Shown here: positions 19,257 to 48,539 of the stretch, one piece after another | How the letters are laid out: the number at the start of each line of letters is the position of its first letter | Position numbering within the stretch: the stretch's first letter is position 1 | Virus record (IMG/VR): IMGVR_UViG_3300025382_000011 | Span: 1 to 52,273 of that record | DNA: 52,273 nucleotides | Source of the DNA: a virus | Taxonomy: Duplodnaviria > Caudoviricetes | Reading direction: 5' to 3' (one strand) | Translations under genes and position numbers: made by a program | The notes under the pieces: model-generated | What the model saw: only the letters and a program-made list of their open reading frames with translations | What the model was told of the DNA's origin: nothing | Databases searched by the model: none

Positions 19257-19526
19257 ATGGCAAAAGGTAATGATAGCGCGAAGATTTTGGCTGCAAGGCC
19301 AGTTCGAGGTTCGCGGGCAGGCACAATTCACCACTCATTTAACTATGAATTGAGTGAAAATGGGGCTTTCGAAAGAGTTGCTCGGAAGGGCAACGCAGTT
19401 TATGAGTCTGAAAATCGGACTCCTTCGGAAAATCCCGATTACCAATCTGGCGTCACACAGAATGTTGGAACTCCCGCGCAAGGTGACGGTTTGCGCAACG
19501 CGATCTCGCACATAAGAGGCAAATGA
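19257..19526 (+). CDS. hypothetical protein
   Basis: Start MAKGND; ATGA-coupled to the next gene. Confidence 0.6.
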   Translation: MAKGNDSAKILAARPVRGSRAGTIHHSFNYELSENGAFERVARKGNAVYESENRTPSENPDYQSGVTQNVGTPAQGDGLRNAISHIRGK

Positions 19527-20008
19527 TGAAGAAAGTTGCTCTTTATGGCAGTTTGCTTGCGCTTTTCGGCGCAACAGCTGCTTTTGGCGCTGGCCAGTTT
19601 CCTGGCTATCCGCTTGCTACCTCCTCCCCGATTGCAGGTAATGCTACGACCCTACCACTGACGGGTAATGAAACGATCCCAGCTGACACCAACCTGACGC
19701 AGAGCTATAATGGTCTGACGGTCGGCAGCATTCAGCCACAGACGGAATTGATCCAGACCTCGCAGCTTCGTGCTTACATCCTGTCTGGTTCGAGCGTTGC
19801 TACGTATGTGTTGCCTTTGATTTCGACGATTGCTACGCTTCCTTCTTGCACGGCTGCTTTGCAGGGCGCAGTTGCTACGGTTAGCAATGGCACGGCTTAT
19901 GCCACGGGCACGTATGGTTCGGCTGTAAGTGCTACGGGTGCAGTTACTCGCGTTGTGGTCTGCACGAACACGGGCGGCGCTACGACCTATGCTTGGGCAT
20001 ACAATTAA
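19523..20008 (+). CDS. virion-module protein with predicted signal peptide
   Basis: MKKVALYGSLLALFGATAAFG-A, then a T/A/G-rich body with IATLPSC...VVC..W (fibre/decoration-like). Confidence 0.7.
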   Translation: MMKKVALYGSLLALFGATAAFGAGQFPGYPLATSSPIAGNATTLPLTGNETIPADTNLTQSYNGLTVGSIQPQTELIQTSQLRAYILSGSSVATYVLPLISTIATLPSCTAALQGAVATVSNGTAYATGTYGSAVSATGAVTRVVVCTNTGGATTYAWAYN

Positions 20009-20019
20009 GTTCGCCTGCA

Positions 20020-20048
20020 TGAAGGGGGCCTAGCCCCCTTCACCTTTT
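20020..20048 (+). terminator. rho-independent terminator
   Basis: tgaagggggc-cta-gcccccttca then cctttt. Confidence 0.7.
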
Positions 20049-20060
20049 AGGAAATTTTCA

Positions 20061-20333
20061 ATGGCTTATCCTACAGCAGATGCGAAGTTTAACGACTATC
20101 TCCATGGTGTTGATAGCAAACTTGTGCCTTTGCGGGATGGGACTTATGCGAATGCGGTGCTGGCATTTCAGCCCCTCGCGCCTTCAAATTACGATTACAT
20201 TGCTTTAGGTTACACTGGGTCGAATTTGACGACTGTTCGATATTATCAAGGCGGGGCTAGCGGAACTTTGATGGTTACGCTTACCCTTGCGTATGATGGC
20301 TCAAATAATCTGATTTCAGTAACGCGGAGTTAA
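20061..20333 (+). CDS. small virion-associated protein
   Basis: [37 protein letters not shown]; lies just before the fibre gene. Confidence 0.65.
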
Positions 20334-20334
20334 G

Positions 20335-23781
<3,447 letters not shown>

Positions 23782-23791
23782 GGGGCGAGAT

Positions 23792-24127
23792 ATGGCGAAT
23801 ACTTATTCTTGGTTAATTTCTGGTGTTGAGACAAATCCGGCTGTTGGGGACTTGACGGATGTAGTTCGTCTAGTGCATTGGAGACGGCAAGTTACGGATG
23901 GAACGAATACAACAGATATTTATGGGGCAGAAAATATCGAATTAAATCTTTCCGAAAAATTTACATCTTTTTCTGACTTAACTCCTGCAATTATTGAGGG
24001 ATGGTTAGAGGAGGCGTTAGGTGCGGATAAGATTTCTGCACTTAATTCCACGCTTGACCAAAAACTTGCAGATGTTGTCAACCCTCCTGTAGTAAACAAA
24101 CCTTTACCATGGGAGTTAGTAATTTAA
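23792..24127 (+). CDS. fibre-associated/assembly protein
   Basis: TYSW..LTDVVRLVHWR..FSDLT..GW..LPW pattern typical of genes following phage fibres. Confidence 0.65.
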   Translation: MANTYSWLISGVETNPAVGDLTDVVRLVHWRRQVTDGTNTTDIYGAENIELNLSEKFTSFSDLTPAIIEGWLEEALGADKISALNSTLDQKLADVVNPPVVNKPLPWELVI

Positions 24128-24139
24128 TAGGAGCCGAAA

Positions 24140-24322
24140 ATGGAGCATGTAAAAGTTAGCATTGAGTTGACTGTAGCTCAATGGAATGTGGTTATGCAGG
24201 GGGTTGGTAATTTACCTTTTGCGCAGGTATCTGAAATTGTGCCTTTGATGAGGATGCAGGCTGAACGCCAACTTTCGGCAATGCAAGAACCGCAGATGGC
24301 ATCAGAAATTCAGCCTTCGTAA
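24140..24322 (+). CDS. small fibre-module protein
   Basis: AGGAG RBS; ELTVAQWNVVMQGVGNLPFAQV. Confidence 0.65.
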   Translation: MEHVKVSIELTVAQWNVVMQGVGNLPFAQVSEIVPLMRMQAERQLSAMQEPQMASEIQPS

Positions 24323-24351
24323 TAAAATCCTGGCATAGAGAGGGGCAATCT

Positions 24352-25452
24352 ATGGCAAGGTCATTGAAAATCTGCGTTTACGCGATCAGCAAAAATGAAG
24401 AACAATTTATGGAGCGGTTTTGCCGATCTGCAGAGGATGCGGATTTAGTTTTAATCGCTGATACAGGATCGACGGACGAAACTGTCGCTTTGGCTCAAAA
24501 GGCTGGAGCGGTGGTTTATAACATTTGTATATCTCCTTGGCGTTTTGACCATGCGAGGAATGCAGCGCTGGCGCTTGTTCCGGGGGATTTTGATGTTTGT
24601 ATAAGTTTGGACTTAGATGAAGTGCTGGAACCCGGATGGAGAGAGGAAGTTGAAAGAGTTTGGGAACCAGATGCGACAAGAATGCGGTATCTGTTTGATT
24701 GGGGAAGCGGCTTAGTTTTTAATGCGGAAAAAATTCATTCAAGAAAAGGATATTTCTGGCACCACCCGTGCCATGAATACCCAAGGCTTGATGCGAGAGT
24801 GTCAGAAAAATACGTTAATTCTGACAAATTACTCGTCAGCCATTACGCAGATAATTCAAAAAGTAGAGGACATTATTTTGATCTTTTAGCCCTTTCGGTA
24901 AAAGAAGACCCTTATTGTGCGAGAAATGCGTTTTATTACGCGAGGGAGTTGTATTTTTACGGACGTTTTGATGAAAGTATTGTGGAGCTTCAAAGATATT
25001 TGGAGATGCCGAATGCTGTTTGGCACCATGAACGCTGCTATGCTTTGCGGGTGATGGGAAAATGTTATGAGGCAAAGGGGCTGATAGAGGTGGCAGAGGG
25101 GGCGTATCATCGGGCGGCTGCGGAAGCGCCGTTTACCCGGGAACCTTGGATGGCGCTGGCAAATATGTTCCATGCTCAAGGGCGCTGGGCGGATTGTTAT
25201 GCCGCAGCCCTTCGTGCGCTTCAAATTACCCAAAGAGAACACGTTTATACCTGTGAACCGGAAAGCTGGGGAGCTTTACCGCATGATTTAGCGAGTATCG
25301 GGGCGTGGCATTTGGGATTGAAGCGGGAAGCTCTGCATCATGTCCAAGAAGCCCTTGTTTTTGCACCTGACAATTTGCGCTTGCAAGGAAATGCTAAATT
25401 GTTTGAGGACTCAATTAGCCCCATTAAAGAGGCAGAAAGTGTTGTGGAATAG
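24352..25452 (+). CDS. family 2 glycosyltransferase with C-terminal TPR repeats
   Basis: ICVYAISKNEE, ADTGSTD, FDHARNAAL, SLDLDE (DxD), HE, FYYARE, then TPR helices. Confidence 0.9.
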   Translation: MARSLKICVYAISKNEEQFMERFCRSAEDADLVLIADTGSTDETVALAQKAGAVVYNICISPWRFDHARNAALALVPGDFDVCISLDLDEVLEPGWREEVERVWEPDATRMRYLFDWGSGLVFNAEKIHSRKGYFWHHPCHEYPRLDARVSEKYVNSDKLLVSHYADNSKSRGHYFDLLALSVKEDPYCARNAFYYARELYFYGRFDESIVELQRYLEMPNAVWHHERCYALRVMGKCYEAKGLIEVAEGAYHRAAAEAPFTREPWMALANMFHAQGRWADCYAAALRALQITQREHVYTCEPESWGALPHDLASIGAWHLGLKREALHHVQEALVFAPDNLRLQGNAKLFEDSISPIKEAESVVE

Positions 25453-25505
25453 GTGTCAAGCCGAAAATAATGTGGTAGGCTTTGCGCGATTAAAAGGATT
25501 GTAGA

Positions 25506-26882
25506 ATGACAACTCCAGATCCGTTTGCCCCCGGCTATCGTTTAACCGATGGCAATCAATTAAACAATAGAATTGCGAACCCGCAGTGGTCTACGTCAGT
25601 TGCGGTTTCAGCAACTCCCGGTGGCACGGCTCTTAATTCTGTTAAAGTAACGAATGCTATTACTAATGTTGCTTACGCATCTGTGTCGGGGGCTGGACTA
25701 GTTCTTCCTCAAGCTATTCCGGGCACAGTTTTAGTCGTTGTTAATAATTCTGCGTATGACATAAGAGTTTTTGCAGATGGTGGTTCGACGGTTAATGGGT
25801 TGCCGGGGGTAATTGGCATTTTACAGCCAACTTTAATAACCAGTTTTTATGTGGCAGTTGCAACTAATGTTTGGCAGCAAGCTATCAACACGAATAATTT
25901 TGGATCATTTACTCAAGGATCTGTAATTTTTGCTGGAGCAGGATCTTTAGCGCAAGATAATGCAAATTTTTATTGGGATGATACGAACAATCGACTTGGA
26001 ATTGGCACATCTGGCCCGTCTTTTCAGTTAGATGTCCAAAGTAATTCTTCGACTATTGGCTCAGTAATTCGTGCTTATAACGCAAATTCTTCCTCTACAT
26101 CTTATGCGGGGCTGATTGCGGGTAATGCTCATGGAGAAACTGGTGCGTTTTACGCATATCAAGGAGGACTGTGGCTCGGTTCGACTTCAAATAATCCGCT
26201 TATCTTCCTTGGCAATAATACGGAAGCATTTAGATTAAATCCTACTGGTGAAATTCAGTTTACGAATGCCGTAGGAACTGCTGCATTTCCAAATAAAATT
26301 CAGTTTTATAGTCTAGGTGGAGTTATTTATGGCGTTGGTGTTGCTACTGGTGAACTCCTTTACAACGCTGGTGATGGACATCATGCGTTTTATACTGGAG
26401 GATCAACGCCTGTAAAAGCTGCACAGATTGCTTCTACAGGGTTGACACTTTACGGAACTTCAAGTGGAGGGGTGTCGATTAACCCTGCGGCGGCTGCGGG
26501 AACGTATAACTTTAATCTTCCTACAACGGCAGGCTCGGCGGGATATGTGCTGACAAGTCAGGGCGGCGGTAGTAACGCTATGACTTGGACGCAGCTTCTA
26601 AACAATACCTCGCCAATTACAACAATCACAACTGGCACTACGCTTACAAGTGCAAATGGGACGGTGCTTTGTAATGCGGCTGGAGGGGCGATCACTGTGA
26701 CGTTGCCAACTGCATCCGGGAATACGGGTTTAATTTTGCCGATTAAAAAGATTGATGCAACTGCAAATGCCGTAACGATTTCAAGTGCAAGTTTGATCGA
26801 CGGACAGACGGCGCAAATGATATTTATTCAGTATCAGTCGCTTACGGTTCAATCTGACGGCACAACTTGGTGGGTGATCTAA
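25506..26882 (+). CDS. fibre protein whose N-terminal domain is paralogous to 39712-40110
   Basis: NFYWDDTNNRLGIGT fibre motif; the N-terminal ~125 aa align with the 132-aa protein. Confidence 0.8.
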   Translation: MTTPDPFAPGYRLTDGNQLNNRIANPQWSTSVAVSATPGGTALNSVKVTNAITNVAYASVSGAGLVLPQAIPGTVLVVVNNSAYDIRVFADGGSTVNGLPGVIGILQPTLITSFYVAVATNVWQQAINTNNFGSFTQGSVIFAGAGSLAQDNANFYWDDTNNRLGIGTSGPSFQLDVQSNSSTIGSVIRAYNANSSSTSYAGLIAGNAHGETGAFYAYQGGLWLGSTSNNPLIFLGNNTEAFRLNPTGEIQFTNAVGTAAFPNKIQFYSLGGVIYGVGVATGELLYNAGDGHHAFYTGGSTPVKAAQIASTGLTLYGTSSGGVSINPAAAAGTYNFNLPTTAGSAGYVLTSQGGGSNAMTWTQLLNNTSPITTITTGTTLTSANGTVLCNAAGGAITVTLPTASGNTGLILPIKKIDATANAVTISSASLIDGQTAQMIFIQYQSLTVQSDGTTWWVI

Positions 26883-28243
26883 TGACTTATACGCCTCCGT
26901 TTATTCGTTCGCAGAATTTCTTGCCAAATTGTCAATGGCAGCTTGCGTCGAATATGCCGTATCTGACAAATCCCCTTCCAACTAAGATGAAGGAAAATGG
27001 GACAGGCCCGCAGACAGCTGTAACCGCTACACTTTCAAGTTCATATGTAAATAATAATCAGCCACGATTGTCTACGACGAATACACAGGAGATGCGAGTA
27101 GGTGATATAGTTTTTTGTGATAATCTTTCATTTTGGGGATATTCTGGTCGAGGGCGTCCTACAACTACTGCATTTTTATGCACAAACCGTGTGCCGTATC
27201 TCGTTGCAAATACGGAATTTGATGTAGTTGGGCATTTTGGCAGCGTTTGCCCTTCCTCGGCAGGAACTTTCACAATTACGCCGATTGGAACTGTGCTTCC
27301 TTCGGGGTCAGGACAGTGTTTTGATGGATGGAAACGCTCGCCTACTCTGACAAATTGGGCTGATGATTGGCCATCGAATAATTGCCCCGGAACAATTCGA
27401 ACACTCGGTTCACGTAAAGGCTCGGCTTCAGCGGAGGTGGTGTATTGGACTTGCCCTCCGGGGCGAATTGGTCGGTATCAAGGGCGTTTAATTACGTTTG
27501 GTGCATTGATTAAGCAAAGAGTGCAGAGTGGAGCTGGAACTGCCCGCCTTTTTATCAATGACGGTGTAAGTGGAATTGTTTATTCAAACTCAACCGTTGG
27601 AGCTGCGTATTCTGATCCAGTTTATGGTGGGTTTGAATTTGTAACGGTTACAGCGCGGGTATCTACATCTTCAACATTACTTCAAATTGGTTTGGAGATG
27701 GATGGTGCGTTAAATGACGTTTATTACATGGGCACACCTACAGCGATTTTTGGCTCAGGTTTGACGGTGGACGATCTTGGTCAACCTTCAACTGAAATCA
27801 TTCGTCCAGTTGGTCACTGGAACCCGCCTCTGTTGACTCCTTATTGCATCAATTTTCCATCAACAGGTTTTGCTACGGGACTCTACGGATATAATGAGCA
27901 GGACTTTGAGGCGATCTCGAATGGCGTTTGCCATAAAACTGTCCCGATGGCGAAGTGCAAATATGAATGGGACACGGGAACTGCTGGTGCGCAATTATTT
28001 ATCGCATCAGACTTTTTATATTTGAACTTCGGACCTCACGCTATTCAGCAAGTTGTAGGTGGAACTGCCCCGGACTACATCCGAGATGTCGCCCAAACAT
28101 GGCATGTTTTCTCGGAAACAGGAAAGTTCTGCGTGTTCACCAATATCGGAGGATTTGATCCAACGGCAGGTGGGCATAGTGGCGCGACTTGCGATTACGA
28201 TGTCGTTGTGTTGGCGATGCAGGAAGGCTCAGTGCTTTACTAA
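26882..28243 (+). CDS. putative receptor-binding/carbohydrate-binding virion protein
   Basis: Start MTYTPP overlaps the upstream TAA. Beta-rich, QNFLPNCQWQ..DGW..YQGRLITFGA pattern. Confidence 0.55.
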   Translation: MTYTPPFIRSQNFLPNCQWQLASNMPYLTNPLPTKMKENGTGPQTAVTATLSSSYVNNNQPRLSTTNTQEMRVGDIVFCDNLSFWGYSGRGRPTTTAFLCTNRVPYLVANTEFDVVGHFGSVCPSSAGTFTITPIGTVLPSGSGQCFDGWKRSPTLTNWADDWPSNNCPGTIRTLGSRKGSASAEVVYWTCPPGRIGRYQGRLITFGALIKQRVQSGAGTARLFINDGVSGIVYSNSTVGAAYSDPVYGGFEFVTVTARVSTSSTLLQIGLEMDGALNDVYYMGTPTAIFGSGLTVDDLGQPSTEIIRPVGHWNPPLLTPYCINFPSTGFATGLYGYNEQDFEAISNGVCHKTVPMAKCKYEWDTGTAGAQLFIASDFLYLNFGPHAIQQVVGGTAPDYIRDVAQTWHVFSETGKFCVFTNIGGFDPTAGGHSGATCDYDVVVLAMQEGSVLY

Positions 28244-28254
28244 AAGGTAAGTAA

Positions 28255-28782
28255 ATGAATAGAGCGTATTTCTTCGACAGAATTAGACATGCGGTGTTTG
28301 GGGGGAAACTCTCAACATCGCAGGTTGAAGGAATTACGAAGATTTTAGACTATCGAGATAGTAATTATAAAGGCGTGACGGACGATCAGTTGGCGTATAT
28401 TTTGGCGACCATTGTTCGGGAAACAGGTTTTAAGATGCAGCCTGTGAGGGAGATGGGAAGCGCAAAATACTTACAATCAAAACCTTACTGGCCATGGGTG
28501 GGTGAAGGCTTGGTCCAAGTGACGTGGAAAGTAAACGCAATGAAATTTGGGGCGAAAAAGCCCGGAGATTTGATGACATGGCCGATAGCCCTGCAAGCTG
28601 CTTTTCAAGGGATGGTGAAAGGCATGTTTACAGGAAAAAAGCTCTCTGATTACATTTTTGACGGGAAATGTGATTATGTGGGCGCAAGAAGAATTATAAA
28701 TGGACAGGACAAAGCGAAATTAATCGCGGGATATGCTCGGGCTTTTCAATATGCTCTGAAAAGAGCAAATGAGGTTAAGTGA
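28255..28782 (+). CDS. endolysin, glycoside hydrolase family 19-like
   Basis: LAYILATIVRETG..PVRE, GEGLVQVTW..N, GMFTGKKLSDY, ARRIING.DKA. Confidence 0.85.
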   Translation: MNRAYFFDRIRHAVFGGKLSTSQVEGITKILDYRDSNYKGVTDDQLAYILATIVRETGFKMQPVREMGSAKYLQSKPYWPWVGEGLVQVTWKVNAMKFGAKKPGDLMTWPIALQAAFQGMVKGMFTGKKLSDYIFDGKCDYVGARRIINGQDKAKLIAGYARAFQYALKRANEVK

Positions 28783-28970
28783 TGGAGAGAGATCTGCGCT
28801 TATACACATTTGCAGCGACGAGTTGGATAGTGCTTTTATGTGCGACATTGGGTTTTTTGACAGGGTGTTCGCAGATAGAAGGAGATGGTTTCACGAATAA
28901 CGGTGAAGCCAAAAAGCAAGTGCTTTGTAAGAAAATTACAAGCACATTTACACGGTGTTACAACAAATAG
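28779..28970 (+). CDS. small lipoprotein
   Basis: Hydrophobic stretch followed by the lipobox LTGC. Confidence 0.55.
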   Translation: MMERDLRLYTFAATSWIVLLCATLGFLTGCSQIEGDGFTNNGEAKKQVLCKKITSTFTRCYNK

Positions 28971-28979
28971 GAGACATAG

Positions 28980-29192
28980 ATGAGCACGTTTATTCAAAAC
29001 TACTTTGTAAATAACTGGCGCACAACGGCTTCTGGTGTGTTGCTGGCGATCCTTGTTGGCTTGCATTACGCTGGGATTAATGTTCCGGGTCTTGCAATCC
29101 CTTCAGATAGCGGTTCGCAGATTGCGATGATCCTTTCAGCGCTGGGCTTGATTGCTGCGAAAGATGGCGGCACGACAGGCGTGGCGAAATGA
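28980..29192 (+). CDS. holin
   Basis: NWRTTASG, two TM segments, GLIAAKD; lies in the lysis cassette. Confidence 0.7.
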   Translation: MSTFIQNYFVNNWRTTASGVLLAILVGLHYAGINVPGLAIPSDSGSQIAMILSALGLIAAKDGGTTGVAK

Positions 29193-29437
29193 GCGCAACG
29201 CTTATTTCAGCACTCATTTCCTTTTTAAGTGGATTAATGAGTGCTGCGGTAAGTGCTTTTAATTGGCTGCACGATCAACAACTTGTGCAGTCAGGTAAGG
29301 CACAGCAGCAATTGGATGATTTGAAAGGGCAAATCCATGATGTTCAAATTGCGATTGCTGCACGGGAGGCTGTTCGGGCTGATGTTGCTAAGCACCCTGA
29401 CAGCCTGCCAGTCAACGACCCTTTCATCCGAGACTGA
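29189..29437 (+). CDS. i-spanin (Rz-like)
   Basis: N-terminal TM segment plus coiled coil; overlapped by a lipoprotein gene. Confidence 0.7.
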   Translation: MSATLISALISFLSGLMSAAVSAFNWLHDQQLVQSGKAQQQLDDLKGQIHDVQIAIAAREAVRADVAKHPDSLPVNDPFIRD

Positions 29438-29564
29438 CAAAGCGTCTTTTTGTCAGGCTGCGAGAGCTATTTACTATTCAAGACATGATACTGCGCCTAC
29501 AATCGCGCAGATTAGGGAACACAATGCGGTCGGCGTGGCCTTGAAATGCGGATGGATAAAATGA
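29337..29564 (+). CDS. o-spanin (Rz1-like lipoprotein)
   Basis: Overlaps the i-spanin in a shifted frame; lipobox LTAC; FC..I..SRHDT..T..QIREHNA..CGW. Confidence 0.75.
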   Translation: MMFKLRLLHGRLFGLMLLSTLTACQSTTLSSETDKASFCQAARAIYYSRHDTAPTIAQIREHNAVGVALKCGWIK

Positions 29565-38565: not shown

Positions 38566-38573
38566 TCACCAAA

Positions 38574-38601: not shown

Positions 38602-38620
38602 ACTCGTAAGGAGCAAGTAA

Positions 38621-38980
38621 ATGGCTAAAGTTCGCCCATATCTCGGTGTTTATGAAACTATGGAATTTCCAGAATATAAATTTCAAGAATATCCGAAAGT
38701 TGTCGGGTATAAGGATGAGAAAAAGGAGTTCCCGATTATTGTTGGGGACGCGAAAGAAGAAATTGATTTCATCACAAAAGGTGAGCCAGGGTCATTCAAG
38801 ACTCGTGAAGACGAATTGCAAGCTGAACTTGACCGGAAAGCTGTAGAGCTAGAACTGGCCAAGACGCAGTTAGCTGAACTAAAGGCACAGAAGGAACTTG
38901 CTGAAACTGCAAAGCCGAAACCTTCATCAAATACTTCTGTGTCTTCTAACAAACCTGCCCTTAACGTCAAGGACATCTAA
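38621..38980 (+). CDS. hypothetical virion-module protein
   Basis: AAGGAG RBS; YKFQEYPK..V...EE plus a coiled coil. Confidence 0.7.
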   Translation: MAKVRPYLGVYETMEFPEYKFQEYPKVVGYKDEKKEFPIIVGDAKEEIDFITKGEPGSFKTREDELQAELDRKAVELELAKTQLAELKAQKELAETAKPKPSSNTSVSSNKPALNVKDI

Positions 38981-39706
38981 ATGACCACGGCGCTCGACAT
39001 TATCACGCTTGCTTATAAAGACGCTGGTGTGTTGGGCGTTGGTCAGACCCTTTTGTCTGAAGACGTGAATGACGCGCTTATACGTTTGAACATGATGATC
39101 GCCCAGTGGCGCGTGAAACGCTGGATGGTCTGGCATTTGATCGATAAAAGCGTGGTGTCAACTGGTGCGATTAAATACAGTGTTGGCCCGGGCGGGGATA
39201 TTGACGTTCCTGTCCGGCCTGACAAACTGGAAAGCGCGTATTTTAGAATGCTGCCGAATGCGAACGGCACACAAGCGGTAGATTATCCTCTCCAATTGCT
39301 TTTCTCCCGCGAGGATTACGCAAGAATTACGTTGAAGCAATTGGTGTCGTTCTCGCAGTGCATTTTTTACGACTCCGATTGGCCAATGGGTTACATTTAT
39401 CCATGGCCGCTTCCGCAAGCGAGCCTTTACGAAGTTCATATCTTATTAAAGGAAACGCTCTCAGAATTTAATGACCTCACATCGACATTTAACTTTCCTC
39501 CCGAATACCTCGCGGCGCTGCATTATAATCTTGTGATAAGAACTCGCGCTGCGTATAGGCTTCCGCCAGATCCAACTTATGAAGGGTTGGCGAAAGACTC
39601 GATGGAGACGGTGCGCTCCGCGAATACCCAAATACCTTCTCTTGTGATGCCGGATAATCTGGTCCGACCGAGCGTCTACAACATTTACAGCGACCAAACG
39701 AGGTAA
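38981..39706 (+). CDS. head-to-tail adaptor (P22 gp4-like)
   Basis: TTALDIITLAYKDAGVLGVGQ..DALIRLNMMIAQW..PPEYLAALHYNL; synteny. Confidence 0.75.
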   Translation: MTTALDIITLAYKDAGVLGVGQTLLSEDVNDALIRLNMMIAQWRVKRWMVWHLIDKSVVSTGAIKYSVGPGGDIDVPVRPDKLESAYFRMLPNANGTQAVDYPLQLLFSREDYARITLKQLVSFSQCIFYDSDWPMGYIYPWPLPQASLYEVHILLKETLSEFNDLTSTFNFPPEYLAALHYNLVIRTRAAYRLPPDPTYEGLAKDSMETVRSANTQIPSLVMPDNLVRPSVYNIYSDQTR

Positions 39707-39711
39707 ATCAA

Positions 39712-40110
39712 ATGGCAATACCTGATCGTCTCCCAAACGGTTATGCGCTTCAAGATGGCGCTGTGCTTGAAAACTTGCTTGCTACTCCGCAGTGGCAGAC
39801 AAACTATGGCATTACGGCTGTCGGCACATCCCGTGCTTCAACAACTCCTTCGCTTACCCTCGGCTCCAATGTTGTGACGGTTTCGACTTCCAGCAACTAT
39901 GGTGTTGTGTTGCCATCCGCTGTGGCTGGTAGCGTTGTGTATTTTTACAATGCAGATAGTGCAGATGCTGTCACGGTATTTGCTCTTGCTTCTGACACGA
40001 TCAACGGCACGGCTGGCGCTACCGGTGTTTCGTATGCTGCAGCTAAAAGAGTGCTTTTCATCGCTGTAACGAACGGCGTTTGGGTTGCTAACGTAATGTC
40101 TGCTACGTAA
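39712..40110 (+). CDS. small virion protein (decoration-like)
   Basis: GVVLPSAVAG..V.VF....DTING beta-sandwich pattern; lies in the structural operon. Confidence 0.6.
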   Translation: MAIPDRLPNGYALQDGAVLENLLATPQWQTNYGITAVGTSRASTTPSLTLGSNVVTVSTSSNYGVVLPSAVAGSVVYFYNADSADAVTVFALASDTINGTAGATGVSYAAAKRVLFIAVTNGVWVANVMSAT

Positions 40111-40124
40111 TAGGTGATAGGAAC

Positions 40125-41540
40125 GTGCCTCAGATCCAACTTGTTCAAGGTGCTTATGAAGCGAGGAGCGTTATCGCAAACGCCCAGCGCTGCATAAATT
40201 TATATCCAGAGCAAAATACCAAGGATGCTGAAGTTCCTTACACTCATTACTGCACTCCGGGGCTGACGCCTTTAGCGCAAGGAATTATTGCTGAAGTGCG
40301 TCAGCTTTACACGGCAAGCAATGGGCTGCTTTTTGCCGTCATCGGGAACACTGTTTATTACGTGCCAGATAACTTTGCCTTACAGGCTTTAGGCACAATC
40401 ACATCACAGTCTGGGCTTGTGTCTATGTATGATAATAAGTTCACGCTTATTATTTTAGATGGATCGACACAGGGCTGGAGTGTTGATTTAACATCATTAC
40501 AATTTGACGTGTTTATTCCAGAAAACTTTTTGGGTGGAAATCAAATTCGTTACATTGACACATTCTTGGTTTCATCAACCCAAAACGCAAATCTTCAATC
40601 TAGTGACTCCAATGCCACAACCTATCCCGCTCTTGGTGTGGCAACTATCTCTGGAGATGCAGATCAACTCCAAATCATTGACACGGTTCATAGAGAAATC
40701 TGGGCTTTCGGAAGACGCACAACAGAAGTCTGGACTGATGTTGGTTCTTACCCATTTCCTTTTCAAGAGATCCCCGGAGTGTTTATTCAACATGGGATCG
40801 CGGCTTTAAGGTCTTTGGCGAAATGGGGCTTGAATATTTTCTGGCTTTCAGAAGATAACAACGGCCAAGCATTGGTTATGATGGGCACGGCTTATAAAGC
40901 TGACGTTATTTCCACCCCAGCTATTGCCGACGCCCTTGGAAAATACGACATAATTTCTGACGCAATTGGATTTTGTTATCAGCAAGGTTCACACATTTTC
41001 TATTTCCTGTCCTTTCCATCTGCAAATGCCACATGGTGTTATGATCTTTCAACTCAACTCTGGCATGAGCGTGGGTATCTGGACGAAAATGGAAATTTGG
41101 TAAGACATCGAGCAAATTGCGCTGCACATGCTTACAACAAAACGATTGTAGGCGATTGGCAAAACGGTAAACTCTACGCTTTTGATCTAAACAATTACAC
41201 AGACAATGGGGACGCAATTTTACGTCTTCGCTCCTTTCCGCATCTTGTTATGGATGGAGATCGTGTAAGTTATTCAAGTTTCATGGCTGACATTGAAGTC
41301 GGCACAGACATTGATCCAAATGATGACCCTCAAATCACCCTTCGCTGGAGTGATGATCGTGGTGTGAGTTTTGGCAATGGGTTGCAACAATCGCTCGGCA
41401 CGTCTGGTCAATACCGTGCAGTTCCTTCTTGGAATAGACTTGGTTTTGCAAGAGATCGTGTTTTTGAACTTTCATGGACTGCGCCTTGTGCGGCAGCATT
41501 AAACGGCGCGTGGATACAAGTCGAGAAGATGGAGACTTGA
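40125..41540 (+). CDS. tail hub / DNA stabilization protein (P22 gp10-like)
   Basis: QRCINLYPE..TPGL, FG..TTEVW, TWCYDLSTQLWHER, LRWSDDRG..F, WNRLG..RDRVFE. Confidence 0.88.
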   Translation: MPQIQLVQGAYEARSVIANAQRCINLYPEQNTKDAEVPYTHYCTPGLTPLAQGIIAEVRQLYTASNGLLFAVIGNTVYYVPDNFALQALGTITSQSGLVSMYDNKFTLIILDGSTQGWSVDLTSLQFDVFIPENFLGGNQIRYIDTFLVSSTQNANLQSSDSNATTYPALGVATISGDADQLQIIDTVHREIWAFGRRTTEVWTDVGSYPFPFQEIPGVFIQHGIAALRSLAKWGLNIFWLSEDNNGQALVMMGTAYKADVISTPAIADALGKYDIISDAIGFCYQQGSHIFYFLSFPSANATWCYDLSTQLWHERGYLDENGNLVRHRANCAAHAYNKTIVGDWQNGKLYAFDLNNYTDNGDAILRLRSFPHLVMDGDRVSYSSFMADIEVGTDIDPNDDPQITLRWSDDRGVSFGNGLQQSLGTSGQYRAVPSWNRLGFARDRVFELSWTAPCAAALNGAWIQVEKMET

Positions 41541-41541
41541 C

Positions 41542-42366: not shown

Positions 42367-42647
42367 CGATAAAAATATTTCTAACATACACCCCAGAAGG
42401 CAAAATCACTGCTCAGACTTTTGAAGAAGAAATTTATTTTGAGCAGCGCAAGGCTAATGGTGAACTTGTCTTGGAAATTCCGAGTCAAATCCATTATAAA
42501 ATTCACAAAATAGATATGACAACATTACAAGTAGTTCAAAAAAGCCCGGAAGAAATTGATGCAGAGGCCCCTAAACCGCTTGAACCTCCAGTAATCGTCT
42601 TGCCGCCCACAATAACTCCTACAACCCCTTTGCCTATCGGCAGTTAA
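42363..42647 (+). CDS. hypothetical protein
   Basis: ATGA-coupled start MTIKIF. Confidence 0.6.
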   Translation: MTIKIFLTYTPEGKITAQTFEEEIYFEQRKANGELVLEIPSQIHYKIHKIDMTTLQVVQKSPEEIDAEAPKPLEPPVIVLPPTITPTTPLPIGS

Positions 42648-42683
42648 GTATTATGATAACTACTTCAAATTTAGGAGATTAAG

Positions 42684-43589
42684 ATGGACCCCGTAACTTT
42701 AGCCATGGCAGGGGCTGCTGCTGGAAGCCTTTTCAAAGGTATTGGGGGAATGATCGGTGCCGGGCAAACGGCTGCAGGTGCGTTACAGGGTGGCCAAACG
42801 GCAAGTTTATTTGACCTTCTTGGCATTCAACAAGCCCAACAAGCTGCACAAAATTGGTATAATACGGCTGCACAAGCGGTATCTCCTTATACAACGGCAG
42901 GCTCTCAATCTATTCAACAATTGATGAGTGCCCTAACAGGCACAGGGGCTAGAGATGCTGGTATCGGCGGGGGTGGCGCGAATTTACTTTCGACTTTTCA
43001 GCCTACTCAAGCCCAGCTCGAACAAACCCCCGGTTATCAATGGGCCAAGCAGCAAACGCTTGGTGCTATGACTAATGCTGGCGCGGCAAAAGGTATTGGA
43101 TCATCTGGTAATTTGGTGCAGCAAGTTGGCCAAACTGCCACAGGCCTTGCGTCCCAAACATATCAGCAACAAGTTCAAAATTACTTAGCTCAAAATCTCC
43201 AAGCCTACAACATGCTGATGGGCCCAACTACATTAGGCCAGTCATCTGCTAATCTACTTGCAGGTGGCGCGACATCTCTTGGTGGAGATTTATCAAGAAT
43301 TAATGCTGCAGGCTTTAATGCTGCAGGGACGGCACTTGGCGGAAGCCAGATGAGTGCAGCTAATGCTCAAGCAACAGGAACAAATGCGCTGTTTGGTGGC
43401 GCAGGGCAAGCTACTGGATATGCAGCATCTTCTCCTCTTGCGAATATTTATGCACAAAGTTCGGCTGGGGCAACACCTCAAGCCACATTAGCTGCATTAC
43501 AAGGTAATATATTCGGAAGCGCACCATCTTACGGAACAAATTCACCAGCATTTGCTCCGGTTAATCCTCAAGCGACAGCATTTAGTTGA
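42684..43589 (+). CDS. DNA ejection protein (P22 gp7-like)
   Basis: G/A/Q-rich; SPYTTAG, LEQTPGYQW, AAKG..SSG, GLASQTYQ. Confidence 0.75.
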   Translation: MDPVTLAMAGAAAGSLFKGIGGMIGAGQTAAGALQGGQTASLFDLLGIQQAQQAAQNWYNTAAQAVSPYTTAGSQSIQQLMSALTGTGARDAGIGGGGANLLSTFQPTQAQLEQTPGYQWAKQQTLGAMTNAGAAKGIGSSGNLVQQVGQTATGLASQTYQQQVQNYLAQNLQAYNMLMGPTTLGQSSANLLAGGATSLGGDLSRINAAGFNAAGTALGGSQMSAANAQATGTNALFGGAGQATGYAASSPLANIYAQSSAGATPQATLAALQGNIFGSAPSYGTNSPAFAPVNPQATAFS

Positions 43590-43604
43590 TAAAGGGCAAG
43601 AATT

Positions 43605-45023
43605 ATGGATCAGCTTCCTAGCGTTGCACCACCAGCTGCACAAAACTTTGACATCCCAAATCCGCTGCAGACTATGCAGCAGATGCAAGGAATTGCTTTG
43701 CAAGGAATTGAAGCGCAAAAACAAAAACAAGCTACAGATTTACAAGCTGCGCAGATCAAAGCAAATCAATCGTTTGGGCAGATTTTACAGAGCCATATCG
43801 ATCCAGAAACTGGAATGCCGAATGTCGAACAATCTTTAGCCATTGCTGCACAACATCCAGAAACTGCTCCATTTTACAAAGATTTTCTAAATTTTACACA
43901 AAGTTATGGAAAGTTGGATGCGGAAAAACACGCAAAGCAGCTAGAAAATAATCTTAGTTCTTTACGGTTGGCGAAGGAAACATTTATTCCACTGGCAACA
44001 AGATTAAATGATGCTACTCAGCCATTAAAAACCTCCGACGTGATGGGCGCATTTGCTTCCATGCGGAATTATTTGCCTGACTCCGAAGTTGATAAGATGA
44101 TGGGGGATTATCTTTCTAAAGAGCAAAAGGGATTAACAACCCCGACAGCCTATGTAAAAGGATCTTTGCTTGGAACCGAACAAGGCATTAAAGCTCTTGA
44201 AAACGCACAAGGCACTTATAAAGAACAAAATGAGCTTGTTCCAGTTAATACACCTAATGGTGTTGTGCCTATGCCTCGGTGGCAAGCAATACAATTAACC
44301 CAGAATGCTGCGCAGGGCAGGTCGGCTCCTCCTGCCGCTGTGCCGCAACGGGGGGAGGGACAACCCTCTGTTTCTCCCCCCACCTCGGCACCATACACTT
44401 ATGCTAGTGAAGCTCAACAAGAAGCGTCAAAAGAACAAGCAAAACAATTCAATACTTTCATGGATAAAAATGCTGAAGGTGCGCGTGATGCTCAACTTGG
44501 GCAAACTCAAATTACTCAACTTCGGCAGACCTTACCAAAAATCGAGCCTTATTTGGGACTGCTTGGCTCAGAAAAAATGAATTTTGCAAAATTAGGTCAG
44601 GCACTTGATGCAAATGATGAGCTGGGAGAGGTTAGGGCACTTTTAGGTGTCGATACTGTAAAAGAAGCAAGAGATGTTATTGCAAACCTTGAAGCATTTG
44701 ACAAAAATACTCTTCTTCAAAATGTTGAGGCAGCAAAAACATCAATTGGTCCGGGCAATCGGATGACAAATGCTGAATTTAATCGCTTCAACAAAGCACT
44801 TTTGTCCATGCGTATGACAGCAAGTGGTGTGAAAAAAGTCCTTGGTTACATGGAAAAACTAAATCAACTCGCTCTTGATCGAAATGAATTTATGACGGAT
44901 TTCCAAAGAAGAGAAGCTGGAAAAGGCCATCAATTTAACGTCAATGTTGCAGAAGATGCTTGGACTCGCTGGCTAACAAAACATCCAGATTCTTTCAAGT
45001 TCGAAGGTCTAGGGGAGGATTAA
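43605..45023 (+). CDS. DNA ejection/internal virion protein
   Basis: Helical Q-rich protein between the gp7-like and lysozyme-domain proteins. Confidence 0.65.
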   Translation: MDQLPSVAPPAAQNFDIPNPLQTMQQMQGIALQGIEAQKQKQATDLQAAQIKANQSFGQILQSHIDPETGMPNVEQSLAIAAQHPETAPFYKDFLNFTQSYGKLDAEKHAKQLENNLSSLRLAKETFIPLATRLNDATQPLKTSDVMGAFASMRNYLPDSEVDKMMGDYLSKEQKGLTTPTAYVKGSLLGTEQGIKALENAQGTYKEQNELVPVNTPNGVVPMPRWQAIQLTQNAAQGRSAPPAAVPQRGEGQPSVSPPTSAPYTYASEAQQEASKEQAKQFNTFMDKNAEGARDAQLGQTQITQLRQTLPKIEPYLGLLGSEKMNFAKLGQALDANDELGEVRALLGVDTVKEARDVIANLEAFDKNTLLQNVEAAKTSIGPGNRMTNAEFNRFNKALLSMRMTASGVKKVLGYMEKLNQLALDRNEFMTDFQRREAGKGHQFNVNVAEDAWTRWLTKHPDSFKFEGLGED

Positions 45024-45024
45024 A

Positions 45025-47421
45025 ATGGCTTATGGCAATCCTTTAGCAGAACTTCCCCGCCTCCGCGCTGGTATTGGCAAAATGGAAAGCGGGAATGATT
45101 ATTCAGCCCTTGGTCCTGTAATTAAACGCAAGCAAGGGACAGATCGGGCTTATGGAAAATACGGCGTGATGGGAGAAAATATCCCATCTTGGACCGAAAA
45201 AGCTCTTGGTCGTCCTTTAACTGCATTTGAATTTTTACACAGCCCAGAAGCTCAAGAAAAAGTTTTTGAAAATCAAATGTCCAGCAATCTTTTGAAGTAT
45301 GGATCTGCAAAAGATGCTGCATCTATTTGGTTTTCGGGGCGACCTTATGCGGAAGCTGCACGGGCTGGTGCGCGTGACATAAACATGCCTGTTTCCCAAT
45401 ACGTGAACTCCGTTATGGGCGGTGGCCCGGAAGTTCGTGGTGAACAATATGCTGAAAATCAACCAGCTGAATGGGCGAGTGATTGGACACCTTCTCGTCT
45501 TGCTCCACAAAATGCCCCAAGACCCGCAGTTGAATGGGCGGAAGAATGGACCCCTTCACGTCTTGAAACTGCACCCACTGAAGCTGCGCCTACAACTGGT
45601 GGGGTGGAATTTTTAGAAGACAGCAAAATTCAACCAGATGAACTTGCAGCAAAAGGTCAACCTCTCCCAGCACAGGCGGGCCAGCCTGTTCCCGTCAAAC
45701 CAATTCCCGCTCCTGTTGTAACAAAACCTGCTCCTTGGGGAATGGCGGAAGAAGCAGCAAATGCTTTACTTGCAGGATATTTACCAGAAGCAATGGCTCC
45801 GTTTACAGGACGAACTGCCGAAGAATATCAAAAAGGCAAACAAATTTATGAAAGAGAATATCCACTTAGAAGCGGGCTTGCAGAGGTTGGTGGTGGAGTT
45901 GCACAAGGCTTGGCTCTTGGTCTAACAGGAATGGGCGCTGTCGGTGCAGTTGCCCCACGAATTGCTCAAGCAGTGCCTCGACTTCGTCCTGCAATTCAAA
46001 CAGCACAAAGATGGATGGCTGGGCAAGCTGGACGCACAGCACCATTTCCAAGTGGCGGAACCTTACGTCAACCCGGAATGGTTGCAGCTGCGGAGAGAGT
46101 TGCAGCTCCAATCGTCGGGGGCGGTTTGGCTGGAGGTATGAACGCTTTCATCAACCAAAGGCTTCGCCCAGATGTTCCTGTCGGAGAACAAGTAGCAGAA
46201 GGTGCGCTTTTTGGATCATTTGCACAACCTTTAACTCATTTAGCGTTTGGGCGCCCGGGCCCTACGTTTGCTCCACACATTGAAGAAAGTGCAAGACAGA
46301 ATGCAATTCTTGCAAGGAATAAATATAATATTCCGATCACTCCTTGGCAGGTTTCTCCTCTCGAAGAAGAACAACAAATCGCAAGACAGGCTGTGTCAAG
46401 TGAACAAGGCTTAGAACAAGTTAAAAAGATCGGTGAAGAAGTTGGAAAGACTTTTAACCATTCCGGTCCTTTTACAGAGACAGAAGTTGGAAAATCTGTT
46501 GATGCTATCGGTAATGTGATGGAGACTGCCGCAAACGGTATTCGTCTGCCTTCCGTCAATCGTGGCACAACTGCATTAGCGCATGATATTATTAATCTTG
46601 CAAATGAAATTACAAATGATGTTGTGGATGATGCTGAAAGAAATAAATTACTTAGAATGGTGCAAAAGTTTAGCGATAGATTATTGCTGACACCTGTGTC
46701 CGGCAGTGTTATTCAAAATTTAACTCAGAAAAATGGTTACATTGACAAGAACTTAAATCCTGCTTCAAATTCGCTCAATAAATATTTTAACGCAAGAATG
46801 AAGGATCTTGTTTATGATTATTTTTATCGAGCAGATCCTGCTCACGCAATGTTATGGGAAGAACTGCGTAACGCTTACAAGAATTCACTTTTAGGTCTTA
46901 AGATTGCGACTCCGTCTGGAGTTCCAGATGTTTCAAAATTACAAGAAGCCGCAAAGAAAGTTCGGGCAAGAGGAAATATGGCAGAACTTGCTGAAATTTC
47001 TTCCCTCATTCCAAAAGTTGTGAATAAAGGAACGGGAGCTGTAGAACGTATTGGCAAGGAAGCGCCTCGAAGAGAAGGCGGTCATTACGGCATTTTTGGA
47101 ACGGCAGCAGCTGGCGGTTTAACTGGTAGTGCAATTGAGCGTCTTTATCCAGAAATATCAAAACAAATTTTTGAAGGAAGCGAAATGCCATTAATGCCTG
47201 CGTTGTTTGCCGCAGGATCTGGCGCAGCATTGTATGGTGGTAAAAAAGCATATGAGGCAGCTAGGGATAGATTTTTACAAAGTCCTATAATTCAAAATCA
47301 AATTTTGGCAGGACGAGGGCCCGCTATGCAGCAAGCAGCATTTGTTAATCCTTTAACGTCTGGGGCTGTGTCTGGTAGACTGACTTATCAAGAAAGACGC
47401 AAAAAGAGGGAAAAGAAATGA
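45025..47421 (+). CDS. internal virion protein with N-terminal lysozyme-like/transglycosylase domain
   Basis: IGKMESGNDYSALGP..AYGKYGVM..NIPSWT..FL.SPEAQE..AASIWFSG. Confidence 0.75.
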   Translation: MAYGNPLAELPRLRAGIGKMESGNDYSALGPVIKRKQGTDRAYGKYGVMGENIPSWTEKALGRPLTAFEFLHSPEAQEKVFENQMSSNLLKYGSAKDAASIWFSGRPYAEAARAGARDINMPVSQYVNSVMGGGPEVRGEQYAENQPAEWASDWTPSRLAPQNAPRPAVEWAEEWTPSRLETAPTEAAPTTGGVEFLEDSKIQPDELAAKGQPLPAQAGQPVPVKPIPAPVVTKPAPWGMAEEAANALLAGYLPEAMAPFTGRTAEEYQKGKQIYEREYPLRSGLAEVGGGVAQGLALGLTGMGAVGAVAPRIAQAVPRLRPAIQTAQRWMAGQAGRTAPFPSGGTLRQPGMVAAAERVAAPIVGGGLAGGMNAFINQRLRPDVPVGEQVAEGALFGSFAQPLTHLAFGRPGPTFAPHIEESARQNAILARNKYNIPITPWQVSPLEEEQQIARQAVSSEQGLEQVKKIGEEVGKTFNHSGPFTETEVGKSVDAIGNVMETAANGIRLPSVNRGTTALAHDIINLANEITNDVVDDAERNKLLRMVQKFSDRLLLTPVSGSVIQNLTQKNGYIDKNLNPASNSLNKYFNARMKDLVYDYFYRADPAHAMLWEELRNAYKNSLLGLKIATPSGVPDVSKLQEAAKKVRARGNMAELAEISSLIPKVVNKGTGAVERIGKEAPRREGGHYGIFGTAAAGGLTGSAIERLYPEISKQIFEGSEMPLMPALFAAGSGAALYGGKKAYEAARDRFLQSPIIQNQILAGRGPAMQQAAFVNPLTSGAVSGRLTYQERRKKREKK

Positions 47422-48539
47422 AAAAGGTTACAGCGGGTCTAACGGCCCTTTTACTATCAAGCACAAGTTTGAATGCAGCTACACTTCTGCCAAACGGTCA
47501 GCAGCAATTCATCGACGGCAACGGTAAGCCTTATGCGAGCGGCAAAGTATATTTTTACTCCAACTTTCCTGCTTGCACGGTTTTGAAAAATACATGGAGT
47601 GACTCAGGACAAACAGTTCTCAACACAAATCCTGTCGTGCTTGATGCTGCCGGTCGTGCAACAATTTTTGGCTCCGGCACGTATTGCCAGAAATTAACAG
47701 ACTCAAACAACAATGTGATCTGGACAACGCAAACCGGTGACACGTCAAGCACATCGACGCTTGGCTGGGGTTCAACTTCTGGCGGCACGGCAAATGCGCA
47801 GACCGTAACGGTGTCAGGCTTTTCCTCAACAAACGGTCAAACATTTTACTTTGTTGCTGGATCGACAAACACAGGAGCGCTCACGCTTTCTGTCAACGGT
47901 GGTGCGCCGATCTCTGTCGTCAAACCAACTACATCCGGCACATCTATTCTTATCGGAAATGAAGTTGCTGCAGGAACTGTAAATGGTGTTACTTATTATT
48001 CTACAACCGGACAATTTCAGCTTATCACCAACAACATAAATGTTGCTACACCTCCCGGGCAGCTGGCGACCTATGCTATGACAAGTTGTCCTGCTGGCTG
48101 GTTGAGTGCAAATGGTGCTGCGGTGTCACGTTCCATTTATTCCATTTTGTTTTCTAATATCGGAACAACGTGGGGATCTGGTGACGGAGCTACCACATTT
48201 AACGTGCCAGATTTACGCGGTATGTTTGTTCGCGGCACAGGCACAAACACTGCTTATCCAGCAGCTGTCGGTCAAGCTGTCGGCACATACGCCGCTGATA
48301 CATACTTAAATCATAACCACACAGCTACTTCTAGTGATGCTGGACATACCCATTCTTATACTGGAGCAAATGGTGGTGGTGCCGCAGCTCCCGGTGTTGG
48401 TGGACAAGGTGTCAACAATGTTGCTGCAACCACAGGAACTGGTTATGCCTCAATCACCACAACTGTTGCGAACTCAACAACGGGCGGCACGGAAACAAAA
48501 CCTAAAAACTACGGGGTTTTGTATTGCATTAAATATTAA
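47418..48539 (+). CDS. tail fibre (podovirus tail-binding N-domain + tail-collar domain) with predicted signal peptide
   Basis: QQFIDGNGKPYASGKVYFY..NTNPVVLDAAGRA; CPAGWLSANGAAVSR..LFSNIGTTWGSGDGATTFNVPDLRG; ETKPKN....YCIKY. Confidence 0.88.
   Translation: MKKVTAGLTALLLSSTSLNAATLLPNGQQQFIDGNGKPYASGKVYFYSNFPACTVLKNTWSDSGQTVLNTNPVVLDAAGRATIFGSGTYCQKLTDSNNNVIWTTQTGDTSSTSTLGWGSTSGGTANAQTVTVSGFSSTNGQTFYFVAGSTNTGALTLSVNGGAPISVVKPTTSGTSILIGNEVAAGTVNGVTYYSTTGQFQLITNNINVATPPGQLATYAMTSCPAGWLSANGAAVSRSIYSILFSNIGTTWGSGDGATTFNVPDLRGMFVRGTGTNTAYPAAVGQAVGTYAADTYLNHNHTATSSDAGHTHSYTGANGGGAAAPGVGGQGVNNVAATTGTGYASITTTVANSTTGGTETKPKNYGVLYCIKY

Follow-up and report, generated by a model that had tools for sequence, protein, structure and literature searches.

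Secretion-type leaders on the tail fibre and a small modular protein of a P22-like podophage, and a possible periplasmic route of fibre maturation

The IMG/VR virus record IMGVR_UViG_3300025382_000011 (Duplodnaviria; Caudoviricetes) comes from an uncultured phage and is a sequence of the linear class with 52,273 bases and an estimated completeness of about 94%. The whole record was analysed and is called the window below. Its late region, which occupies about 15.5 to 48.5 kb of the plus strand, is P22-like according to Pfam and PHROG matches, and a tail fibre gene closes the structural module. The fibre and a second late protein, encoded at 19523 and called P0002 here, both begin with an N-terminal leader of the secretion type. 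The coordinates of these and the neighbouring features are collected in Table 1.

The ATG of the fibre gene overlaps the TGA of the gene directly upstream (ATGA), and a GAGGG Shine-Dalgarno-like run lies ahead of it. The deduced N-terminus is MKKVTAGLTALLLSSTSLNA-ATLLPNG, and the predicted cut by signal peptidase I (SPase I) is before Ala21. The first-pass annotation of this DNA had described a leader with n-, h- and c-regions in front of ATLLPNG, coupling to the upstream gene and the absence of another ATG before the tail-binding domain. All of these were confirmed: the leader MKKVTAGLTALLLSSTSLNA has 20 residues, and the next in-frame Met is residue 221. In the AlphaFold2 model the leader is a low-confidence helix of residues 2-16. 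Neither this leader nor that of P0002 has a lipobox Cys at +1 or a twin arginine when the sequences are read by eye, and a lipoprotein or twin-arginine (Tat) leader was dropped on this ground.

N-termini were examined with a rule-based check of the n-, h- and c-regions, which is home-made and strict and includes a hydrophobicity threshold. It flags the fibre and P0002, but not one of the 17 further late, structural or fibre-like window proteins that were checked. As for its background, 35 of 1200 shuffled N-termini were flagged. Of 77 crude open reading frames (ORFs) taken from the window, the check picked out 5, and two of those run antisense to adjacent ORFs; G001, a complete relative of 56,088 bases that has direct terminal repeats and is colinear with the window, gave 3 of 79.

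A survey of homologues for the leader had been proposed in the first-pass annotation. A search with fibre residues 1-120 gave 201 hits, from which 120 clusters were listed; all counts refer to those 120. The leader is kept in 118 of them. The exceptions are P0122, which is without a leader and starts M-ATLLPNG, and P0102, in which the h-region is deleted. The ATLLPNG-type motif is found in 119 clusters (P0040 has a leader and an unmatched motif), and in 117 of these 119 the leader is 17 residues long or longer. All 117 leaders have Lys or Arg within the first seven residues, and 114 have two or more such residues. In 115 there are 10 or more consecutive uncharged residues, and only four contain any Asp or Glu. 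Position -1 is occupied by Gly (50), Ser (36), Ala (30) or Pro (1), and position -3 by Leu (85), Ala (31) or Ile (1).

The leader sequences themselves vary widely, with 97 distinct leaders among the 119 motif-bearing sequences. The mean pairwise identity is 41% for the leader versus 66% for the first 80 mature residues (6786 pairs). Leaders as unlike one another as MKKVLLALWLLLVASAANA, MRKFAVATALWLLPCIANA and MKRIVALLALLVGSAEA end alike just before the invariant mature start. In signal peptides, the physical properties are conserved and the sequence is free to change. The turnover of sequence, with retention of the n-, h- and c-features and of the mature start, thus supports the view that the fibre leader evolves as a signal peptide does.

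It might be argued that the leader is an artefact of annotation, the true start lying downstream and the leader being untranslated. The only in-frame alternative start in the fibre gene is a TTG at codon 18, but no Shine-Dalgarno-like run was seen before it, and the relatives have alternative starts at differing codons with no conserved internal start. A wrong start codon was dropped for these reasons. In most of the 12 loci printed, such runs stand ahead of the annotated fibre ATG, as they do at the coupled ATG of the window. Furthermore, the leader is open and its properties are kept in nearly all listed clusters in spite of heavy turnover. This explanation is considered highly improbable.

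The leaderless homologues start exactly at the predicted cut. They comprise P0122, the fibre of locus L109 from a Beijerinckiaceae metagenome-assembled genome (MAG), which starts M-ATLLPRG, and a second fibre clade from viral contigs, clade B (37-41% identical). The clade-B fibres start M-AVVTPTAKAQF, and there is no space upstream for a leader. MW202483, the closest record in GenBank, also belongs to this leaderless kind, and Ala21 of the window fibre aligns with Ala2 of its fibre P0005.

A tree was made by a quick method from 52 chosen rows and 95 columns. The rows were every fourth listed cluster together with 18 picked variants, nine clade-B loci, the fibre of contig L103 and L109; locus L110, mentioned below, was left out. 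The leaderless clade splits off with a support of 100 in the SH-like approximate likelihood ratio test (SH-aLRT). The leader-bearing rows together have the leaderless L109 as their sister (support 87), and P0122 and P0102 are nested inside. Most simply, the history of the leader would consist of three changes: one gain at the base of the clade and two losses.

A scan of bacterial genomes with the fibre N-domain gave only two loci, L109 and L110, both in MAGs of Alphaproteobacteria. The fibre relative at L110 (7512-9302; Xanthobacteraceae) has a leader-like N-terminus ending AHA-AATLLPPG. This start is followed by an insertion of about 100 residues, after which the conserved N-domain resumes.

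The fibre contains the cysteines C53/C90 and C224/C370, and P0002 contains C109/C147. Thus, the Cys pairs that the first-pass annotation had seen in both proteins are present, at C53/C90 and C109/C147. C53 and C90 covary strictly: both are present in 106 sequences, both are absent in 15, and discordant cases number 0. In an alignment of 82 fibres, C224 is conserved in at least 90%, and so is C370. In the mature part of the 120 leader-clade (clade-A) fibres, four Cys residues are found in 96, two in 15, six in three and 14 in one, so that the number is even and nonzero in 115, odd in three and zero in two. The 40 distinct leaderless fibres of clade B have one Cys in 22 cases, two in 13, three in four and four in one.

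Charge after the predicted cut follows the leader as well. No Lys or Arg occurs in the first 16 mature residues of 115 of the 118 leader-bearing fibres. All clade-B N-termini printed have Lys 8-9 residues past the start Met, and the L109 fibre has R6 and K8. Basic residues after the cut hinder export, and exported proteins favour even numbers of Cys. The early avoidance of Lys and Arg and the even Cys counts fit Sec substrates.

The hydrophobic N-terminus might instead act in the cytoplasm, as an aid to folding or trimerisation, a chaperone handle or a membrane tether for timing, and be either kept or removed by another protease. Fibres do need help in trimerisation. A large subgroup has a short h-region of only moderate hydrophobicity, leaderless variants exist, and the AlphaFold2 helix of the leader would suit such a role. 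However, a peptide that binds a partner should keep specific residues, whereas what the 97 leaders have in common is limited to charge, hydrophobicity and small residues at -1 and -3. Leaders of this kind are found on three unrelated mature N-domains, namely those of the fibre, P0002 and the spikes described below, and the charge and Cys patterns fit export. Also, up to 18 exposed hydrophobic helices per tail, if six trimeric spikes are presumed as in P22, would be odd for a soluble virion. A cytoplasmic function is regarded as quite unlikely.

The N-domain of the fibre was matched by Foldseek to the head-binding domain of the P22 tailspike gp9 (1lkt, 2vnl, 2vky, 8tvr, 8eb7, 8u10), to Sf6 gp14N (7sg7) and to the fibre N-termini of the cyanopodophages Pam1 and Pan3. 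Further matches were 7eeq and 9vyg. The probability was 0.97-1.0 and the TM-score on the target about 0.5. In addition, phrog_26190 matches residues 29-109. The AlphaFold2 model of the fibre, based on 82 sequences, has a mean predicted local distance difference test (pLDDT) value of 75.9 and a confident N-domain: the values per 10-residue block in residues 21-110 are mostly 76-92, with 64 at residues 61-70. The collar domain sits within the C-terminal receptor-binding part. This part has matches in the PDB (8kec, 1ocy) to the fibre of cyanophage A-1(L) and the T4 short tail fibre (gp12). It is swappable: the listed clusters have total lengths of 215-638 residues upon one N-domain. Judged by the modelled fold, the 47418 protein is a podovirus tail-binding fibre of the P22 tailspike type, and the tail-binding domain that the first-pass annotation had placed behind the leader is indeed there. 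The genome has a single copy of this fibre/head-binding-type domain. Its docking site is expected to be the hub formed by the gp4- and gp10-like proteins. The hub genes span 38981..41540 (plus strand), and the rule-based check flagged none of them for a leader.

The ORF of P0002 starts ATGATG, which gives a protein beginning MMKKVALYGSLLALFGATAAFG-AGQF, and is ATGA-coupled to the upstream ORF. The leader and the AGQF start given in the first-pass annotation were borne out, although its sequence was one Met short. The residues before the cut are A-F-G. P0002 was also considered as a lipoprotein of the Llp/Cor type; the leader ends AAFG-AGQF with no +1 Cys and no lipobox, and this candidate was rejected. 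P0002 matched no PHROG family and no Pfam family at E up to 0.01. A profile of its family gave no hit among PDB sequences, and tblastn searches of GenBank phages with P0002 and with the L103 spike found nothing. Scores in an ESM Atlas look-up were at most 0.89 and serve as leads only.

An exhaustive search for P0002 gave 67 representative proteins, which reveal a modular architecture. The N-terminal half, consisting of the leader and GQFPGYP...LTGNETIPADT...PQTELIQT, is common to proteins of 126-437 residues with other C-terminal ends. The last 60 residues or so (TIAxLPxC...VSNGTAY...CTNT...YAWAYN) recur at the C-termini of proteins of 368-1135 residues, as well as in shorter proteins and fragments. 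Four of the six long proteins with this C-domain that were scanned contain pectate-lyase-like beta-helices. A C-terminal sorting domain of type IX secretion was considered for the C-domain common to P0002 and the spikes, and was dropped because no Pfam sorting domain matched.

The leader is widespread in this family too. Among full-length hits, 48 of 57 pass the leader check, and the mature Cys number is even in 45 of these 48. In five of the nine misses a hydrophobic leader is evident although Lys and Arg are lacking; their starts were probably called too short. An alignment of the C-domain found 23 loci in viral contigs (only four with P0132 as the query). Three of the ORFs are cut at the 5' end, and all 20 complete ones have a leader (16 of the P0002 type and four of the spike type). 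One leader-bearing spike, of 703 residues (L103:4072-6183), is encoded between the capsid gene and the adaptor/gp10-like genes of another P22-like contig; the hub-docking fibre of that contig is itself leaderless. Orthologues of P0002 are present in all three relatives that are at least 90% complete.

Sequence divergence is concentrated around P0002 and in the fibre. Core genes are 87-99% identical to those of G001, compared with 53-75% in the module by P0002 (P0002 itself 75%, its 90-residue neighbour 66%, the collagen-like fibre 53%); the tail fibre is 65% identical. Such a contrast in identity is what host-range genes show.

A three-copy model of P0002 residues 23-161 reached an interface score (ipSAE) of 0.81, with 0.00 for the best control, and its interface comprises residues 94-161. 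The runs agree in at least 32% of the contacts, and the partner pLDDT is at least 58. The mark used for ipSAE was reached by 20 of 30 proteins whose solved structure is a pair of one chain and by one of 23 whose solved structure is a single chain, a calibration that is rough for three copies and an alignment of our own. The AlphaFold2 model of the monomer is poor (pLDDT 61.9). P0002 looks like a small trimeric module of the receptor-binding type, on account of its modularity, its hypervariability and the trimer model. The first-pass annotation had called it a virion fibre. That label goes beyond the evidence, and a role as an exported accessory or exclusion protein fits equally well.

This leads to the possibility that the leaders export these proteins for a role in the envelope or the surroundings and not in the virion: masking or destruction of receptors, depolymerisation of capsule or O-antigen, superinfection exclusion, or release from debris. 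Virions would then use other fibres or an unexported cytoplasmic fraction. The gene of P0002 has fibre genes as neighbours within a hypervariable module, and the lipoproteins Llp of T5 and Cor are likewise encoded beside receptor-binding or fibre genes. The beta-helices of the long leader-bearing relatives are typical of depolymerases. The leaderless collagen-like protein and the products of 25506 and 26867 could serve the virion, and moderately hydrophobic h-regions could give partial export. On the other hand, a P22-type head-binding domain is kept right behind the fibre leader in a genome without a second copy, and the fibre gene is translationally coupled to the genes of virion ejection proteins. 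Neither a lipobox nor a beta-barrel signature is seen, and P0002 has no Pfam hit. A periplasmic protein would need a further secretion step to reach the outer face of the cell. As an account of the leaders in general this role seems rather unlikely; for P0002 and the beta-helix spikes it is the likelier of the rival explanations.

We favour, with reserve, a route in which the leaders of the fibre and P0002 would be genuine Sec/SPase I leaders, and the fibres would fold and oxidise in the periplasm and join fibre-less particles at holin-triggered lysis. That the leader drives export at all seems probable; the complete route can be called no more than quite possible. The lysis cassette is of the spanin type, which points to a diderm host with a periplasm and canonical holin-triggered lysis; its holin, i-spanin and o-spanin identities are putative and come from the translations. 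The P22 tailspike is reportedly the last part to be added, and tailspike-less heads are said to be completed in vitro. Because of this, the fibre is the one structural protein that might be re-routed without breaking assembly.

The steps of this route would be as follows. The fibre would be made late, along with the ejection proteins, would cross SecYEG unfolded and would be cut before ATLLPNG. The cut would restore the N-terminus that the leaderless relatives have after removal of their Met. In the periplasm the mature fibre would fold, trimerise and form the C53-C90 and C224-C370 disulfides, while DNA-filled particles without fibres wait in the cytoplasm. Once the inner membrane is opened by the holin and lysis is completed by the endolysin and spanins, the compartments would mix and the fibres could dock on the gp4/gp10-like hub. 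P0002 might take the same export route. From the sequences we infer export, cleavage, oxidation, the timing of attachment and the residence of P0002 in the virion. In its widest form, the proposal is that a freshwater-type lineage of P22-like podophages sends its receptor-binding proteins (the fibre, the small trimeric module and the beta-helix spikes) through Sec, to be cut, oxidised and trimerised in the periplasm and mounted at the holin breach. Such a two-compartment morphogenesis is offered tentatively.

Several observations weigh against periplasmic maturation followed by mounting at lysis. The rule-based check flags only 91 of the 120 fibre homologues. Of the 29 that it misses, 27 have a short h-region of only moderate hydrophobicity, and the subgroup of the GALAAFLYSTSAL type lies just below its hydrophobicity threshold. 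It also flags four of 40 proteins of the leaderless sister clade. Because many members of the fibre family are close kin, fewer independent events underlie the counts than their size suggests. A working leader is missing from the natural variants P0102 and P0122, which means that export is not indispensable for the fold of the fibre. Two leader-bearing fibres have no mature Cys at all, and disulfide formation is therefore not the sole reason for the leader. The other fibre-like proteins of the window (the collagen-like one, 25506 and 26867) were not flagged for a leader. Finally, fibres that attach only while the cell lyses or afterwards would need to do so efficiently, and no tailed phage is known to mount its fibres at that stage.

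Taken together, the leader is real, conserved and wider in occurrence than the first-pass annotation had described, and its interpretation as an export signal for maturing fibres is plausible. That annotation had proposed export, periplasmic folding or oxidation and joining of particles at lysis. The podovirus fibre, the signal-peptide-like evolution of the leader, the covariation of the cysteines and the diderm-type lysis cassette speak for this reading, and the part that goes beyond the evidence is the assignment of P0002 to the virion. Its other suggestion, that the proteins block receptors from inside the cell, is speculation.

Full-text literature searches found no Sec-type leader on a tailed-phage fibre, as judged from titles and the beginnings of abstracts in a corpus outside subscription journals and supplements. 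The fibres P22 gp9, Sf6 gp14 and those of Pam1 and Pan3 share with the window fibre the fold class of the N-domain, the P22-like module with a gp4-/gp10-like hub and a swappable C-terminal part. P22 gp9 itself is not known to have a leader; the window fibre differs in its 20-residue secretion-type leader and in the covarying Cys pair inside the N-domain. Virion proteins with Sec-type leaders are known from filamentous phages, in which g3p and g8p carry them and g3p is oxidised in the periplasm. However, filamentous phages assemble in the membrane and are extruded, whereas the window phage belongs to the tailed, lytic type that assembles in the cytoplasm. The virions of tailed phages are taken to assemble wholly in the cytoplasm.

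A near precedent is provided by Sec-exported and signal-anchor-release (SAR) endolysins of the fOg44 Lys44 and P1 Lyz type. These late proteins are described as being routed through Sec and staying outside the cytoplasm until the holin fires (PMC6116005). They resemble the fibre in that a late phage protein would pass through the host Sec machinery before lysis. They are lysis enzymes and not parts of the virion, though, and the window endolysin has no N-terminal leader. The MAT fibres of Bdellovibrio, another near precedent, are described as having a signal peptide, a conserved domain of about 130 residues and a trimeric fibre with swappable tips (PMC10769870). This is the architecture of P0002 and the long leader-bearing spikes; the MATs are bacterial surface proteins and are not encoded by phages. 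Lambda Lom is described as an exported protein coded among tail-fibre genes (PMC12309495). Lom, Llp and Cor resemble P0002 in bearing leaders and lying among fibre genes. They are beta-barrel proteins or lipoproteins without fibre domains, whereas P0002 lacks a lipobox and has a C-domain in common with spikes.

If the proposed route is true, an export leader on the one part that can be added last would give a tailed phage a second compartment for assembly. Disulfide chemistry in the periplasm would make tougher receptor-binding proteins, and the attachment of fibres would have a built-in delay until lysis. Export together with late mounting, if shown, would be a categorically new route of assembly. 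Even without entry into the virion, an exported fibre with an intact hub-binding domain would represent a new kind of envelope-directed phage function. The leaders would then also bear on the annotation of phage secretomes, on the expression of fibres (with the leader, or in an oxidising compartment) and on the host factors SecA, LepB and DsbA as possible limits of phage yield.

Table 1. Positions of the leader-bearing genes, their parts and neighbouring late genes in the window
Feature	Position	Strand	Basis or remark
P0002, 161 aa: leader, conserved N-domain and swappable C-terminal domain	19523..20008	+	
P0002 leader, residues 1-22 (MMKK...AAFG)	19523..19588	+	predicted cut before AGQF
P0002 C-terminal domain, residues 96-161, with C109/C147	19808..20005	+	modelled trimer interface
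Hypervariable fibre/accessory module beside P0002	20061..28243	+	90-aa protein, collagen-like fibre (20335-23781), DUF7936, glycosyltransferase, fibre-like 25506 and 26867
Lysis cassette	28255..29564	+	phrog_181 for endolysin; rest read by eye from translations
Endolysin	28255-28782	+	phrog_181; no leader or hydrophobic segment at N-terminus by eye
Lipobox protein (LTGC)	28779-28970	+	by eye
Holin-like, 70 aa, two hydrophobic stretches	28980-29192	+	by eye
i-spanin-like, 82-aa ORF	29189-29437	+	by eye
o-spanin-like, 75 aa, lipobox (LTAC)	29337-29564	+	embedded out of frame within i-spanin-like ORF; by eye
Large terminase	30242	+	P22-like late region
Portal	31613	+	match to P22-like portal family (PHROG)
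Scaffold	36435	+	P22-like late region
Major head protein	37351	+	family match
gp4-like adaptor	38981-39706	+	PHROGs 637/12985
132-aa protein between adaptor and gp10-like genes	39712-40110	+	
gp10-like head-closure protein	40125-41540	+	PHROG 578
Fibre- or needle-like protein	41542	+	
Internal or ejection-type proteins, three (the third is the 798-aa protein below)	42684, 43605, 45025	+	
798-aa internal/ejection-type protein	45025..47421	+	stop overlaps start of fibre gene
Tail fibre gene, 373 aa	47418..48539	+	Pfam Collar PF07484, PHROG tail-fibre families
Fibre leader, residues 1-20	47418..47477	+	MKK n-region, uncharged h-region, SLNA c-region
P22-tailspike-head-binding-like N-domain, about residues 21-110	47478..47747	+	Foldseek; holds C53/C90
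Phage tail collar domain PF07484, residues 214-271	48057..48230	+	71.5 bits against a cut-off of 24

The collagen-like fibre of the hypervariable module has 1148 residues with long runs of GPT/GAT triplets, matches Pfam Collagen and has no leader. Several clade-B contigs (loci L041-L046, L053, L066 and L070) have an ORF of about 200 codons directly before the leaderless fibre gene. Its product resembles the central non-collagen segment of the collagen-like fibre, and motifs such as GSFYDTT...TAAAxNT are common to the two. This resemblance in sequence suggests that fibre modules are common to the clade-B phages and the group of the window phage. Downstream of the collagen-like fibre are the DUF7936 protein and a beta-1,4-glycosyltransferase. 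The fibre-like protein 25506 (25506-26882, plus strand) has 458 residues, the first 124 of which are 34% identical to the 132-residue protein at 39712-40110 (E 2e-16). It may be a fibre that shares a docking domain with this structural protein. Between its gene and that of the endolysin lies 26867-28243 (plus strand), which encodes another protein of 458 residues; it contains 12 cysteines, lacks a leader and matched no family. In the lysis cassette, the lipobox protein behind the endolysin may be an extra lipoprotein.

No near phage was found in GenBank: megablast with the late region as the query matched none of its phages, and the closest portal match has an identity of 45.6%. Scans of 43 window proteins against Pfam or PHROGs revealed no integrase, and the phage is therefore probably virulent. 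Expression of the leader genes from a lysogen was dropped for the same reason and because a polymerase, a primase and a helicase are encoded by the phage itself. Pfam gave nothing on ten further window proteins.

The minus strand codes for a DNA polymerase, a primase, a helicase, recombination proteins and a ParB-methyltransferase. The last of these (2-1420) has a ParB-like nuclease/partition domain fused to a DNA methyltransferase domain, and its ORF leaves the end of the window. Also on the minus strand, in the early region, an ORF of 86 codons (7218-7478) matches no Pfam or PHROG family. Its product has a clear secretion-type leader, MFRTLTICVVLLCNSANA-QE, and may be a small exported early protein, for example an exclusion factor.

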